Positions 1 through 33,893 of a stretch of DNA of 64,000 bases are shown one piece after another. Within the stretch, counting starts at the first letter, position 1. Every line of letters begins with the position of its first letter. The notes beneath the pieces are model-generated. The model made no database searches. It had not been told where the DNA came from and was given only the letters and a program-made list of their open reading frames with translations. The stretch is from IMG/VR virus record IMGVR_UViG_2778261087_000003; one strand, 5' to 3'. The position numbers and the translations under genes are program-made. The DNA is from a virus (lineage: Duplodnaviria > Heunggongvirae > Uroviricota > Caudoviricetes).

Positions 1-598
1 TCTTCAGCAGAAAAAGCCGCACCATTGCATTTCAGCCAGCCTGTTGGCGGAGTGGCTGAAGGCCACGGAACAGGCACGCCAACGGGTAATGCCGAACCTT
101 CTCCCAAACCAAGGTTTTTGACAAACAGCGCAGGCTCAGGAATATCTGCGCCGTTCTGGTCTTTAGCCAGCTTTTCCGCCAGCTTGTTCAGTACCGTAGT
201 CGCAAAGTTTGGATCATTACCGAGAGCGTCAGCCAGCTCTTTAAGCGTATCCAGTGTCTCAGGGGCGCTGCCTGCAAGTGCCGCAAGTGCTTTGGCCACA
301 AACTCCGTCGTCGCCAGCTTTTTGCTGTTATCACCATTTGCAGGTGTAGGTGCTGTTGGTGTGCCGGTGAATGTCGGACTGGCTTTCGTCGCGTACTGGG
401 TATGCGGGTCAACTGCCGCGATATGTGCAGCCAGGTCTGTTCCGCTTTTTTCGACCTTCTGTTTGAGGTATGACGTTCGGCTGGCCAGTTGTTTAGCCTG
501 GCGGTTAGAAATTCCGTCAGGTCCGCCCAGAACGGGGTCAGAGACCTCAATCTGGTAGATGCCGTCTTCCCACTGCGGGGTTTCGGGTAGATTTGCCA
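1..598 (-). CDS. Tail fibre protein, 5' portion only (gene runs off the left edge)
   Basis: Minus-strand ATG at 598-596 gives MANLPETPQWEDGIYQIEVSDPVLGGPDG...; further in it reads ...GLGEGSALPVGVPVPWPSATPPTGWLKCNGAAF, the same motif as the host-range region of the tail fibre at 40061-41959. Plus-strand ORF 25-558 is its antisense. Confidence 0.8.
98..123. other. gix/cix-like recombination crossover site inside the tail-fibre gene
   Basis: TTCTCCCAAACC-AA-GGTTTTTGACAAA: two half sites ending AAACC / GGTTT around a 2-bp AA core (111-112), the pattern of Gin/Cin/Hin sites; lies exactly where the constant and variable fibre parts join. Confidence 0.55.
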
Positions 599-601
599 TA
601 A

Positions 602-1180
602 TTAACTGCTCCCGTGGTTGTAACTACCGTCATAACGGGTAGTACTGTTGTATCGAATGGCGACAGACTGATATTCCAGACTTGCCAGATGACAGCGAGC
701 CGGAGCAAAGGCAGCAAGCGTCTGACGTAACAGCGCCGCCTGATCGTTAGTGATGGGTTGTTGAAGGATGACGCGATAGACTGCCCAGGCTTGTGCATCA
801 CCATGGACGAAAAGCCCGTTGTACGTGTGTCTGCCGTCATAGCCAATCTGCCCCGTACCTTCAATCAGATCCACTTCGCCGAAGCCAAAACGGCGGATAA
901 TTTCCCGGATTGACCACGGTGTTCCTTTATAGCGGTGTAGCTCGATAGCGGATTTGATAAGCATGCGGCGTACATCGTCCGATTCCGCCAGTTCCCAGCC
1001 ATCGCCGAACAGCGAGAACTGCTCGCCAAGCCATGGCAGCGCGGAACTGTCGACAATATCGACGAGACCGACCATCAGTACGCTCAGGTCGATGTTATCC
1101 AGCCGTCCGGCCAGTCTTCCCAGCGTTCTGAGACTGATATCACCCTCAAGCGGTGGCGGGAGTTGTAGCACCTCAGCCAT
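602..1180 (-). CDS. Baseplate/tail protein (P2 gpI-like, Mu gp48-like)
   Basis: 192 aa, immediately upstream of tail fibre and downstream of J-like gene; position and size typical of gpI. Confidence 0.55.
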   Translation of the reverse strand: MAEVLQLPPPLEGDISLRTLGRLAGRLDNIDLSVLMVGLVDIVDSSALPWLGEQFSLFGDGWELAESDDVRRMLIKSAIELHRYKGTPWSIREIIRRFGFGEVDLIEGTGQIGYDGRHTYNGLFVHGDAQAWAVYRVILQQPITNDQAALLRQTLAAFAPARCHLASLEYQSVAIRYNSTTRYDGSYNHGSS

Positions 1181-2276
1181 CGGACACCCCGGTCATGTTA
1201 AGAGTGATCGCCGTACAGTTTGCCCATTCGTTTTCTGCCACCACCCTCAGTGCCGGTGTCACCAGTTCGACCTGGTACACCCCGGAAACGGACAACACGC
1301 TGATAATCTGGCTGGGAACAATATCGCGCCCCAGCGTGGCGGTACGGGATGCCACCCAGTTCTGTATGGCGCTGTTAGCGTTGTCCTTTACCAACCTTGC
1401 ATCCTGATCACGATAGATCGTAATCCTGGCTTCAATGGTGTAATCCACCTGAACAGGTGTTTTAGCCCGCACGGTATCAGTGAGTGGTCTGACTTTTTCG
1501 TCAGAACAGAAACTCTCTACCAGAGTGAGGATACTGCTGTCCGGCAGACCAGTGCTGAGCAGCGGATACAGCTCGACAGTGCCGGGAACGGGAGAAAGAA
1601 CAGCAACGTCGACAATGCCGGGATGCGCCCCCATAGCATGAAAACGGTATGCACCACGGCTTCCGGCATTGGTGAATGACTCCGGGGCCAGCCTGATACG
1701 CTCCCGGAGCCGGTCATCGTCTTCCTGCTCTGAACCGCCAGAGCTGGCCGTCAGATTGGTCACCAGCAGGTCAATGTTATCAATCTCATCGAGTAACTGA
1801 CTGACCTGCGCCGGTTGCCAGCCGTTGCCAGCGGTACCCGGCTCGGTACAGGTGGCCGTGACATTGACCAGCAGCAATCCGGCCTTCAGCACCACGTCTG
1901 TATCGGTGGCAAAAATAATACTGTCGGAAGCGCTGACGCGGGTGCCTGCCGGGATCAGCACATCAATGGCCAGTGCCTCATCCACAGAGAACTGAAGTGT
2001 GGTGGTGGCAGGCTGCGCGGCAAGGCGGTATACACCGACCAGTTCACCGAGGTAATCAATCATCGGCTCACGGGAAAAAGCGACCAGATTCTGCTTCGCC
2101 GCCTCCTGTACTGCCACCCTGACCAGCATTTCGCGATAGGCCCACAGGTCAATCAGCAGACGTTCAGCCTGTGCCGGGTACAGCGTTTTTCCGGTATCCG
2201 CTTCATACTTCGCAATCATTTCTGCCGTGATTTTATCGGCATCGCGTTCAATAAAATCGGGTTCTGTCAGCGCCAT
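1173..2276 (-). CDS. Baseplate protein J-like (Mu gp47-like)
   Basis: 367 aa, overlaps neighbours by a few nt, sits between gpW-like and gpI-like genes. Confidence 0.7.
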   Translation of the reverse strand: MALTEPDFIERDADKITAEMIAKYEADTGKTLYPAQAERLLIDLWAYREMLVRVAVQEAAKQNLVAFSREPMIDYLGELVGVYRLAAQPATTTLQFSVDEALAIDVLIPAGTRVSASDSIIFATDTDVVLKAGLLLVNVTATCTEPGTAGNGWQPAQVSQLLDEIDNIDLLVTNLTASSGGSEQEDDDRLRERIRLAPESFTNAGSRGAYRFHAMGAHPGIVDVAVLSPVPGTVELYPLLSTGLPDSSILTLVESFCSDEKVRPLTDTVRAKTPVQVDYTIEARITIYRDQDARLVKDNANSAIQNWVASRTATLGRDIVPSQIISVLSVSGVYQVELVTPALRVVAENEWANCTAITLNMTGVSDG

Positions 2277-2614
2277 AGCAGTTCCTGAGTACGGGGTTGT
2301 CCGTCTGAGCCTTTCCAGCTCACCCGGAGCGTAAGATGTTCGCCGTCGACGGCGGGTTTAACCGACATAAGCTGGCAGCGGGGTTCCCAGCGCCTGATGG
2401 CATCGACGGATTCGCGAACCACATGCGGAATGGCCCGGTCGACAGGCCAGTCGATATAAAGGTGCAGATTACTGCCGAACTCCGGGCGATGCGGGTCGCT
2501 GCCCCGGGGAGTCCGCAGGATGATTAGGATGGACTGCCGGATATCATCCAGCCCCCGGACAATTTCGCCGGGAGCCTGCAGAGCCGGTTGCCAGAATACT
2601 GAGGTCGTTTTCAT
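2267..2614 (-). CDS. Baseplate wedge protein gpW/gp25-like (Mu gp46-like)
   Basis: 115 aa small protein between spike V-like and J-like genes; conserved synteny. Confidence 0.6.
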   Translation of the reverse strand: MKTTSVFWQPALQAPGEIVRGLDDIRQSILIILRTPRGSDPHRPEFGSNLHLYIDWPVDRAIPHVVRESVDAIRRWEPRCQLMSVKPAVDGEHLTLRVSWKGSDGQPRTQELLWR

Positions 2615-2670
2615 GGAGGCAGTATTGCCCCCGGGAAGTAAGCGCCGATATTAAAGGCGTTTAAGAAGGT

Positions 2671-32581: not shown

Positions 32582-32786
32582 ATCTGTTGTATGTGCCCTG
32601 TTCTGGTATTGTTTTGTCGGTTGGTGTACTGCTGAACTGCACCGCCGTTCAGGGTTTTATTCACGTTACAGTGGTGCTGGCTACTGGATTAGTTGGTCGG
32701 TGATGTTCCTGTGCTGGCCTGTGGCGCTTCCTTTATATGTCGATTATATCGGTGGCGCAGGTAAAAGGAGCAACGATGATGACTAA
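32571..32786 (+). CDS. Small membrane protein
   Basis: MTAESVVCALFWYCFVGW... two hydrophobic segments. Confidence 0.35.
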   Translation: MTAESVVCALFWYCFVGWCTAELHRRSGFYSRYSGAGYWISWSVMFLCWPVALPLYVDYIGGAGKRSNDDD

Positions 32787-33228
32787 ACAACGTCTTATCC
32801 AGCTCATTCATATTGCCCGTAATGAACTGGGTATGGATGAAGACACCTACCGCCAGATGTTACAGGGGCTGACCGGTAAAGCCTCAACCAAAGGAATGGA
32901 TACCACACAACTAAACTGCGTGCTGGAATCCATGAAAAGGAAAGGCTTTCGCGTTAAGCCTGCCGGAAAAGCCAGCTCCGGTTTACCGCTGGATAACCAT
33001 CCGCAGTCCAGGAAAATCCGTGCGCTATGGCTTGAAATGGCTGCTGCCGGCATTGTTCGTGACCGTTCAGAAAATGCATTAGCGCGGTGGATCAAGCGGG
33101 AAACGGGCATCAGCGCCCTGCGCTGGCTCAATACTGAACAGGCAAGTAGTGTTATTGAGAAACTGAAGAAGTGGCAGCGCAGAGCTGCGGGAGTAAAACA
33201 TGAGCGACCTGAATCAGTTTCGAAGTAA
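32776..33228 (+). CDS. GemA-like regulatory protein (Mu gp16-like)
   Basis: MMTKQRLIQLIHIARNELGMDEDTYRQMLQGLTGKASTKGMDTTQL... Confidence 0.6.
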   Translation: MMTKQRLIQLIHIARNELGMDEDTYRQMLQGLTGKASTKGMDTTQLNCVLESMKRKGFRVKPAGKASSGLPLDNHPQSRKIRALWLEMAAAGIVRDRSENALARWIKRETGISALRWLNTEQASSVIEKLKKWQRRAAGVKHERPESVSK

Positions 33229-33589
33229 AGGGCCGGAACTCCTGGTGGAACTGGCACAGCATACCTCTGAGACCGTTCGCGAGATTATTGATATTGAGCC
33301 CGCAATTGCCGACCAGATTGGTCAGGCCGTCGCGAACCGCATGATGCAGGTCTGGGGCGGGCAAAACGTTTATTTCCCGATGGGCATGGTATGGAAGGTC
33401 AGTCAGCGCGACCGGGAAATCTTCAGGGAGTTTAACGGACGTAACCACCATGAACTGGCCCGCAAATTTGGTGTTTCGCTTCAGTGGGTCTACAGCGTGG
33501 TTAAGCGGGTAAGAAAAGAAGAACTGGATCGGATGCAGGGCAAGCTATTTGCTGATGAACCCGATGTAGATACGGAGAAAAAAGAGTAA
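33200..33589 (+). CDS. mor: Mor/C-family late transcription activator
   Basis: ...GGQNVYFPMG...REIFREFNGRNHHELARKFGVSLQWVYSVVKRVRKEE...; last gene of early arm. Confidence 0.7.
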   Translation: MSDLNQFRSKGPELLVELAQHTSETVREIIDIEPAIADQIGQAVANRMMQVWGGQNVYFPMGMVWKVSQRDREIFREFNGRNHHELARKFGVSLQWVYSVVKRVRKEELDRMQGKLFADEPDVDTEKKE

Positions 33590-33680
33590 TATCTGCAATC
33601 AGGCTGGCGCGAGTTCTGTTTTTTTTTCGGGCCGGTCTGATTTTCACATACTGTAAGGTTATTGCATATTCCTCCTAGTC

Positions 33681-33734
33681 TCTTCCCATTTTGACCCAGT
33701 TCTTCCCATAAATATCTCACTTATTCCCTGTCAT
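33681..33734 (+). repeat. Three direct repeats TCTTCCCAT / TCTTCCCAT / TATTCCCTGTCAT at 20-21 bp spacing; candidate transposase-binding sites at the element end
   Basis: Seen directly between mor stop and the point where the sit reading frame resumes. Confidence 0.4.
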
Positions 33735-33893
33735 TTATCTCAAGTCTAATCATCTCGTGTAGTTCAGGAGGGCATTGCTCAACAGGAACAGCAGGCCAAA
33801 TCAACTACACCAAAGGGTAAAAAACGACGCAGGAAGGCTATACCAGAGGATATAAAGGCACAACGGACCGAAGCAGCCGAACACGCTCGCGAA

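Follow-up and report, generated by a model that had tools for sequence, protein, structure and literature searches.

The first half of a 64,000-nt stretch of viral DNA (IMG/VR record IMGVR_UViG_2778261087_000003; hereafter the window) carries Mu-like phage genes on two arms that read away from each other, which raises the question of whether both arms belong to one transposable phage and whether their layout departs from that of the colinear Mu genome. The window starts at base 1 of the source contig NNXF01000006.1 (130,020 bp; GCA_002486955.1), and its coordinates are those of the contig. We consider it very likely that the DNA from 1 to 33752 and a further 2.1 kb from the opposite end of the contig make up one complete BcepMu-type transposable temperate Escherichia coli myophage of ~36 kb, which entered the sit gene of a P1-like IncY phage-plasmid through DDE transposition. 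For the BcepMu group, two divergent arms are the normal, inherited state and not the mark of a rearranged Mu-like genome; since they are also found in the distant phage BcepMu itself, they are ancestral to the group. This architecture is already known, being the standard published one of a common prophage group, and near-identical copies are annotated in RefSeq.

Strand layout, termini and target site

Gene calls were transferred from the 99.985% identical RefSeq prophage copy of E. coli 97.3, and all 50 transferred open reading frames (ORFs) translate without internal stops in the window. An earlier note on this DNA had placed all head and tail genes on the minus strand from 21.8 kb to 1 and all transposition and regulation genes on the plus strand from 25.0 to 33.6 kb. 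Both placements agree with the ORF map and the transferred annotation, in which the minus strand holds 28 consecutive genes (602-21800) and a tail-fibre gene (1-599) cut by the window start, these ~29 genes serving head, tail and lysis functions, and the plus strand holds 21 consecutive regulation and transposition genes (25011-33589). The arms do run outward from a central ~3 kb, as the note had described, and this centre (21.8-25.0 kb) is not empty: it is a control and accessory region with three plus-strand and two minus-strand genes. The sole Mor activator and the sole transposase lie on the plus arm, and structural genes lie only on the minus arm.

The note had put the end of the element at 33749. 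An end does exist there, with its exact position three bases further on at 33752, where all E. coli matches to the element stop. The features of this end are the following:

33653-33752: right (Mor-side) end, terminating …ATCA-3', the element tip reading …TCTAATCA
12-20 and 35-43 nt from the tip: transposase-site-like repeats GAGATAAAT and GAGATATTT
33753-33758: right copy of the target-site duplication TCTCGT
33753-36914, plus strand: 3' 92% of sit (SLT-domain protein, 1140 aa when intact), outside the transposable phage

Each terminus reads 5'-TGAT from the outside in and carries two repeats of the form (G/C)(A/C)GATAWWT, ~11-20 and 33-43 nt from the tip. The Mor-side end is identical to that of BcepMu at 47 of 80 positions and has the same paired repeats. 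No inverted copy of the right end that could serve as the left end was found at 2-4 mismatches; the two ends share only TGAT and the short internal repeats.

The left junction was instead predicted from relatives as a 6-bp duplication followed by 5'-TGA, which would leave an 89-aa fragment of Sit. The predicted 89-aa protein was found on the one 130,020-bp contig, and the 5-bp and 7-bp alternatives were absent. The note had expected the left end some kb before the first base of the window, and it does lie there, at a distance of 2.1 kb, in the opposite end of the circular source contig. At this junction (contig base 127,900) …gacgttTCTCGT is followed by TGATGCGCCGCG…, beginning TGATGCG, and at the right junction …TCTAATCA is followed by TCTCGTgtagtt…. 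A perfect 6-bp TCTCGT stands at both ends of the element, compared to a single copy in the uninterrupted plasmid pSA20030575.2. The insertion cuts sit after nucleotide 261 (codon 87), the ORF at 33894-36914 being the restart-truncated remainder of the gene, and 484 P1-like plasmids match the window only from 33753 onward. A 6-bp duplication also flanks each of three further, independent insertions in E. coli, one in a short-chain dehydrogenase/reductase gene between gcvP and bglA, one between aroA and ycaL and one in the tail region of a lambdoid prophage. In E. coli E-1246, the relative lies between lambdoid prophage tail genes and its duplication is CTTAAC.

We also considered 89-aa Sit fragments in other assemblies as the mark of an insertion hot spot, and rejected this idea: those contigs simply end at sit nucleotide 267, where alleles diverge. 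Dozens of public P1-like contigs stop within the first 50-116 sit codons, many of them exactly at nucleotide 267 (codon 89), where a conserved N-terminus gives way to divergent alleles and assemblies break. It is a coincidence that the phage inserted 6 nt upstream of this point. The clusters listed in a homologue search with the first 89 residues of Sit did not include the source contig.

Comparison with BcepMu, Mu and P2

The BcepMu record (NC_005882) has genes 1-16 on one strand, running from Mor at the tip and GemA through B and A to gp16, and genes 17 (the repressor) to 52 on the other. In the published description, two clusters occupy opposite strands and lysogeny control sits where they meet; the lysis genes form a holin/endolysin/Rz/Rz1 cassette, the tail cassette is P2-like, the termini have CA dinucleotides, the transposase is of the Tn552-IS1604 type, and other bacteria have relatives (Lavigne et al. 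2009, summarising Summer et al. 2004; PMC2771037). Divergent arms are the published hallmark of the BcepMu group, and annotators should not flag the layout as odd. The resemblance to BcepMu, which the earlier note had suggested, was borne out by blastp: 27 of the 28 complete minus-strand late genes are colinear with BcepMu gp51-gp21 in mirror orientation (28-77% identity), and six early genes match as well, namely A (68%), B (59%), gp10, gp12, GemA and Mor. A literature search on 'SalMu', named in the same breath as BcepMu, matched only unrelated words.

Besides the divergent clusters, the element and BcepMu have in common a repressor/gp16 switch where the arms meet and an rve (Tn552/IS1604-type) transposase paired with an AAA+ ATPase, and in both the early arm ends outwardly in GemA and Mor. 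The lysis genes of both are holin, SLT endolysin, Rz and Rz1, the head genes are Mu-like, the tail genes are P2-like and the order of these genes is shared. Both have TG…CA termini with paired sub-terminal repeats, and their late arms have intergenic gaps at four matching places, of which three hold a related repeat. The divergent clusters, the transposase-ATPase pair, the TG…CA ends with a target duplication at varied sites, the holin-SLT-Rz-Rz1 cassette and the combination of Mu-like head with P2-like tail are those of the BcepMu-like group. In contrast to BcepMu, the element codes for a Mu-type Gam and a different repressor, carries a Dam methylase cassette that is transcribed opposite to the late genes, and has a Gin-type invertible tail-fibre segment, whereas BcepMu was reported to be without an inversion system. 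Conversely, blastp found in the element neither the gp53 acyltransferase nor the gp03-gp07 set of BcepMu.

Matches to Mu (NC_000929) were limited in blastp to TerS, TerL, portal, F, G, gp36, W (weakly), Gam, GemA and Mor, with no match to MuA, MuB, Mu c or Ner. The Mu-type head genes that the note had recognised are therefore present as TerS, TerL, portal, F and G. Both phages are transposable temperate myophages with TG…CA ends, a sheath-to-baseplate-to-fibre order and an invertible tail-fibre segment with a serine invertase, and both code for Gam, GemA, an activator of the Mor/C family, TerS, TerL, portal, F and G. However, Mu keeps its genes, the repressor excepted, on a single strand in a colinear layout, makes a 5-bp duplication instead of 6 bp, and has separate Mor and C activators and mom/com where the element has a single Mor homologue. 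The endolysin of Mu is of the lysozyme type; that of the element (20713-21447) bears the Pfam domain SLT, in keeping with the SLT lysin that the note had seen in place of Mu lys. Divergent arms, the lack of similarity to MuA and MuB, 6-bp duplications and a nucleotide alignment of ~2% place the element outside Muvirus.

Homology to P2 (NC_001895) is confined to the tail proteins FI, FII, U, D, V, W, J and I (23-38% identity); no blastp match was obtained to P2 Q, P, O, N, M, ogr or int. The element lacks the P2-type capsid, terminase, integrase and cos that define the Peduoviridae. A P2-type baseplate order, as claimed by the note, holds inside each of the blocks FI-FII-E-T-U-D and V-W-J-I-H, but not for their succession: the two tail blocks stand in opposite relative order, the sheath block preceding the baseplate block as in Mu and not the reverse as in P2, and gpX, relocated with respect to P2, lies between U and D.

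These comparisons bear on three other explanations of the locus. The two arms might be two adjacent elements, a defective Mu/P2-type structural cluster (1-21.8 kb) next to an independent transposon or early fragment (25-33.7 kb), and the lower G+C of the centre (0.45-0.51 vs 0.55-0.60 in the arms) and its genes without BcepMu counterpart would suit such a seam. However, a search of the window sequence revealed no second end-like sequence and no second early-gene set inside the element, including 21.8-25 kb, the interval where, according to the note, a boundary or second set would have meant two elements. Moreover, the element as a whole is enclosed by a 6-bp duplication, both here and in three other genomes, the only activator and transposase lie on one arm and the only structural genes on the other, and the same contiguous arrangement recurs in BcepMu, in the records of PhiKM and KP12_2 (see below) and in the chromosomal prophages E94, 4/1-1, AR_0058, E-1246 and 97.3. 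The paired junctions with their 6-bp duplication refute this explanation, to which we give practically no credence. It is no more believable that a true Mu relative (Muvirus) recently had its early region inverted in this lineage. While Gam, GemA, Mor, TerL, F and portal do match Mu proteins, MuA, MuB, the Mu repressor and Ner have no similar counterpart, ~2% of the nucleotide sequence is alignable to Mu, the target duplication has 6 bp against the established 5 bp of Mu, the distant BcepMu has the same layout, and among the relatives examined none combines a colinear Mu order with the same rve transposase. Finally, the junction with the P1-like plasmid could be an assembly chimera in which a prophage from the chromosome was joined to a plasmid contig. 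The assembly is a draft, the contig breaks within a repeat-rich invertible region, and the phage/P1 junction was not found in PLSDB, complete E. coli genomes, GTDB representative genomes or JGI metagenomes. Yet both junctions fall exactly at the element termini, the 6-bp duplication and the 89-aa truncated Sit were predicted beforehand and then found, and 130,020 bp is the size expected of a 93-94 kb P1-like plasmid with a 36 kb element, so that a chimera seems very improbable. We therefore retain a single BcepMu-type phage inserted in the plasmid.

Relatives, mobility and the phage-plasmid host

Relatives of this phage are common on chromosomes. The A-B gene pair was found at ≥80% identity in 640 of 5,426 complete E. 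coli genomes (~12%), with plasmid-borne copies accounting for 1 of 709 places. Most of the A-B region is contained in 5 of 72,556 PLSDB records and any part of it is matched in 11; no PLSDB copy sits in a P1-like plasmid. One of these records is the conjugative IncFIA/FII plasmid NZ_CP043512 of Enterobacter kobei. This plasmid and the lambdoid prophage of E-1246 are examples of other relatives that also reside in mobile elements. Recent work mentions Bcepmuvirus prophages in E. coli ST131 and gut isolates.

The closest deposited phage, Escherichia phage PhiKM (PQ738613; ~86% nucleotide similarity), is filed in GenBank under Bcepmuvirus and has the same phage type and gene order as the element, but a different immunity segment. 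At 20200-20577 of its record, ~330 bp of an annotated host ABC-transporter gene join two phage ends, as expected if host DNA were packaged with the phage, which is an indirect hint. A BcepMu-type prophage sequence also stands under OM835952 ('Klebsiella phage KP12 clone KP12_2'), although that record is classed in Vequintavirinae.

The nearest copy of all is the prophage of E. coli O68:H12 strain 97.3 (NZ_CP061758), which differs from the window by 5 single-nucleotide polymorphisms (SNPs) over 33,657 nt (99.985% identity). It is chromosomal, in nhoA, and has a different tail-fibre variable cassette, whereas the window copy is plasmid-borne with intact junctions. Because a copy with only five differences sits at a different site, the phage has been mobile recently. 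The 97.3 copy (1415-37596 of the examined stretch) has no target duplication and a frameshifted invertase, and it is flanked by an IS4321/Tn3 remnant on the left and a truncated nhoA on the right, which suggests a transposition-associated rearrangement.

The tail-fibre gene at the window start lies in an invertible region, with one site marking the switch:

99-124: Hin/Gin/Cin-type crossover site TTCTCCCAAACCAAGGTTTTTGACAA, where the constant part of the tail-fibre gene meets the variable part

We take this site to resemble hixL. A 26-nt gix sequence had no match at ≤3 mismatches, and the degenerate core was matched. Identity to the 97.3 copy begins at base 96, and positions 1-599 are 81-82% identical to invertible-segment repeats in E. 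coli relatives. The rest of the invertible region, with an intact 190-aa serine invertase and alternative fibre/assembly cassettes, occupies 127.9-130.0 kb of the contig. Inversion is visible between E. coli 4/1-1 and AR_0058, which have the same prophage at the same aroA/ycaL site with a 1.6-kb tail-fibre segment (element ~1157-2764) in opposite orientations. This segment is flanked by ~210-bp repeats; since these are present in three copies, more than one inversion is possible.

Whether the single BcepMu-type phage is active can be weighed on the same data. That it is a complete-looking but inactive (cryptic) prophage, no longer transposing or forming particles, is unlikely, though worth some consideration: this copy is known from sequence alone, its tail-fibre region is broken at the contig ends, and the near-identical 97.3 copy, with its frameshifted invertase and missing duplication, indicates that copies decay or rearrange. 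On the other hand, none of the 50 transferred ORFs has an internal stop, the duplication is intact and the ends are perfect, the 5 SNPs to a copy elsewhere imply very recent transposition, and the ~86% similar PhiKM was deposited as a phage record, one that carries a stretch of host DNA.

The first of these points, knowledge of the copy from sequence, also counts against the picture of a complete functional BcepMu-type phage, and so do several others. The two contig ends do not fit together cleanly: across the join, the tail-fibre ORF has only 201 aa, and the element is ~0.3 kb shorter than the 97.3 copy; the contig break lies inside the invertible segment, and probably either some sequence is missing or the population was mixed in orientation. 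Nucleotide similarity to BcepMu is ~27%, with 39% of the element aligning (a one-directional estimate). The ICTV genus threshold is ~70% genome-wide nucleotide identity, and judged by its sequence the element is in the BcepMu architectural group but not in the genus Bcepmuvirus by this usual 70% rule. The late-strand motif described below was counted in the same sequences that defined it, and its copy at gpW leaves almost no leader before the start codon and may not be a promoter. Replicative transposition, headful packaging and the Mor dependence of this motif are presumptions carried over from Mu and BcepMu.

The remainder of the window (33753-64000) is a P1-like IncY phage-plasmid (98.6% identity), in which sit was recognised from the annotation of pMTY2330_IncY. 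This part carries sit, the tail-fibre genes R/S/U with the C-segment and cin, lydA/B and darA. A replicon of 130 kb exceeds the P1 headful size of ~100-105 kb. With sit cut and the 130-kb replicon above the P1 headful, the P1-like element is probably no longer viable or packageable as a phage; its plasmid functions appear to be untouched. The crossover core AAACCAAGGTTT occurs twice in the window (106-117 and 43637-43648) compared to 0.06 expected, and two Gin/Cin-type switches share one replicon. The copy at 43637-43648 adjoins cin of the P1-like phage, and the 106 nt around the cores (12-117 and 43543-43648) are 80% identical.

Given that both phages carry this core and that two invertases lie on one molecule, the switches could cross-react. 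One might thus picture a composite 130-kb replicon in which the transposable phage rides on and disables the P1-like phage-plasmid and the two host-range switches cross-react or exchange tail-fibre cassettes; we regard this as a long shot. If true, unrelated phages would have a natural way to swap receptor-binding modules, and a transposable phage would have one to spread on plasmids. The only uncommon aspect of the locus is the nesting of a transposable phage in a phage-plasmid, its layout being ordinary. Its ecological point is that a transposable phage sits in a temperate phage that lives as a plasmid, probably crippling this P1-like phage and gaining a plasmid vehicle. Its value lies in being a fully delimited example: both ends and the duplication are mapped, as are the switch promoter, the lysis genes and the candidate late promoters.

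Genes and control sites of the two arms

The centre of the element and its early arm contain the following features:

21931-22674, plus strand: Walker-A protein of the accessory cassette
22728-22943, plus strand: 71-aa protein of the accessory cassette
23134-23898, plus strand: Dam-family N6-adenine methylase (Pfam MethyltransfD12, TIGR00571 dam, PADLOC MTase_II)
23943-24470, minus strand: lipoprotein (lipobox LSGC), downstream of the repressor in the immunity operon
24512-24922, minus strand: cI/DicA-type helix-turn-helix (HTH) repressor (Pfam HTH_3, Phage_CI_repr; NCBIfam RstR/DicA)
24939-24966, plus strand: early promoter Pe, TTGACA-16-TACAAT (sigma-70, 11/12 consensus, the best in a scan of the central 4.4 kb)
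25011-26785, plus strand: proximal early genes, coding for a gp16-family HTH protein (Ner/Cro position), an IclR-type HTH protein (gp12), a DUF3102 protein (gp10) and a 105-aa protein
26801-28570, plus strand: DDE (rve) transposase A (Pfam rve; PHROG 310; 68% identity to BcepMu gp09)
28581-29747, plus strand: AAA+ ATPase B (Pfam AAA_22; 59% identity to BcepMu gp08)
29750-33589, plus strand: distal early genes, comprising Gam, several small ORFs, a DUF2786/DUF7168 protein, GemA and Mor
30047-30577, plus strand: Gam (Pfam Phage_Mu_Gam; 63% identity to Mu Gam)
32779-33228, plus strand: GemA (Pfam GemA; matches Mu and BcepMu)
33200-33589, plus strand: Mor-family activator (Pfam Mor; matches Mu and BcepMu)

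The accessory cassette (21931-23898) has no BcepMu counterpart in blastp, varies between relatives and is of lower G+C. Its accessory proteins fall in PHROG 3787 and 4490, both annotated there as of unknown function, and PADLOC returned for the central cassette only the methylase and generic HTH matches, with no defence system. The repressor and lipoprotein genes occupy the position of BcepMu gp17-gp18. Over 23000-26000 the G+C is 0.45-0.46, compared to 0.55-0.60 in the arms. Because the segment at ~23000-26000 is swapped for unrelated sequence in most E. coli relatives (~75% coverage), it is a mosaic immunity module. The repressor start and the first early gene flank Pe on either side, and a palindrome ACACAC-N7-GTGTGT within the Pe spacer is a candidate operator. 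The first early gene matches TIGR04111 BcepMu_gp16 below the family cut-off. Neither A nor B matched MuA or MuB in blastp, and PDB sequence searches with both returned nothing informative. Scans for tRNAs and Rfam families gave no matches.

On the late strand, four intergenic gaps carry the motif TCTTAA-N4-CTTTAAWATC followed ~19-20 nt later by NAWACTGYC:

21851-21870, minus strand: candidate activator site/late promoter upstream of holin, TCTTAACGCGCTTTAAAATC
14381-14399, minus strand: degenerate sister site upstream of the protease
8462-8481, minus strand: sister site upstream of E
2647-2666, minus strand: sister site upstream of W

The strict pattern, which was defined post hoc from these same sites, has three matches, all of them minus-strand and intergenic, compared to 0.02 expected. 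The sites are kept in E94, PhiKM and KP12_2, and BcepMu has AGCCGATTAAAAGACC twice and GGCTTTAATATCC at three of the four homologous gaps. By analogy with the Mor/C-dependent promoters of Mu, the Mor homologue, of which there is only one, may activate the opposite arm through these sites. The motif also has a downstream ACTGYCTCC; in the leaders of holin and protease, CTGTCTCC can pair with the ribosome-binding region GGAGACA.

A possible course of events can be read from this arrangement. The repressor gene faces the strong sigma-70 promoter Pe, which heads an operon of the gp16-like HTH gene, further regulators, A, B, Gam, GemA and, last, Mor. Once repression is lifted, A and B would replicate the genome by repeated transposition, as in Mu and BcepMu. 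Mor would then act on the late genes of the opposite strand through putative activator-dependent promoters upstream of holin, protease, chaperone and gpW. The Mu-type terminase is predicted to package the prophage with flanking host DNA by headfuls, lysis would proceed through holin, the secreted SLT transglycosylase and Rz/Rz1, and the Gin-type invertase would switch tail-fibre cassettes.

The late arm, all on the minus strand, comprises:

1-599, minus strand: 5' part of the tail-fibre gene (P2 gpH / Mu S type), with its start codon at 599 and a translation beginning MANLPETPQWEDG
602-5433, minus strand: gpI, J, W, V, D, X and U from left to right, transcribed U to I (baseplate/tail tip; 40-62% identity to BcepMu gp51-gp45)
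5433-7898, minus strand: tape measure, a BcepMu gp44 homologue
8074-8409, minus strand: tail chaperone E (28% identity to BcepMu gp41)
8508-8789, minus strand: small ORF between chaperone E and tail tube
8792-9316, minus strand: tail tube, P2 FII-type, with a BcepMu homologue
9313-10740, minus strand: tail sheath, P2 FI-type, with a BcepMu homologue
within 10730-14325, minus strand: head-tail connectors (gp38, gp37, gp36 and DUF2190 homologues; gp36 also matches Mu gp36)
12242-13195, minus strand: major capsid protein (Pfam Phage_cap_E)
13210-14325, minus strand: protease/scaffold, a BcepMu homologue
14540-19436, minus strand: G, F, portal (DUF935), TerL and TerS (DUF3486), Mu-type packaging/head genes (45-67% identity to BcepMu gp31-gp27)
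19436-21800, minus strand: two small proteins (gp26- and gp25-like) and the lysis cassette (blastp to BcepMu gp26-gp21)
20070-20723, minus strand: Rz, with one transmembrane helix in the translation
20108-20374, minus strand: Rz1 lipoprotein (lipobox LLAVSC), embedded in Rz in the +1 frame
20713-21447, minus strand: SLT endolysin, with an N-terminal hydrophobic signal/signal-arrest-release-like segment
21450-21800, minus strand: holin (Pfam Holin_2-3)

The proteins of 602-5433 are 23-38% identical to P2 I, J, W, V, D and U and match Pfam Phage_P2_GpU and Phage_GPD. Those of 5433-10740 share 43-77% identity with BcepMu gp44, gp40 and gp39 and also match P2 FI and FII, those of 10730-14325 share 43-54% with BcepMu gp38-gp32, and those of 14540-19436 share 23-49% with Mu gp31, gp30, gp29, gp28 and gp27. 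The 214-bp gap between G and the protease (14326-14539) contains on the minus strand a terminator-like hairpin, GGGGCTGTA…TACAGCCTC, with a T-run. This gap lies near the middle of the element, at the position of the Mu gap with the strong gyrase site and the PI promoter.

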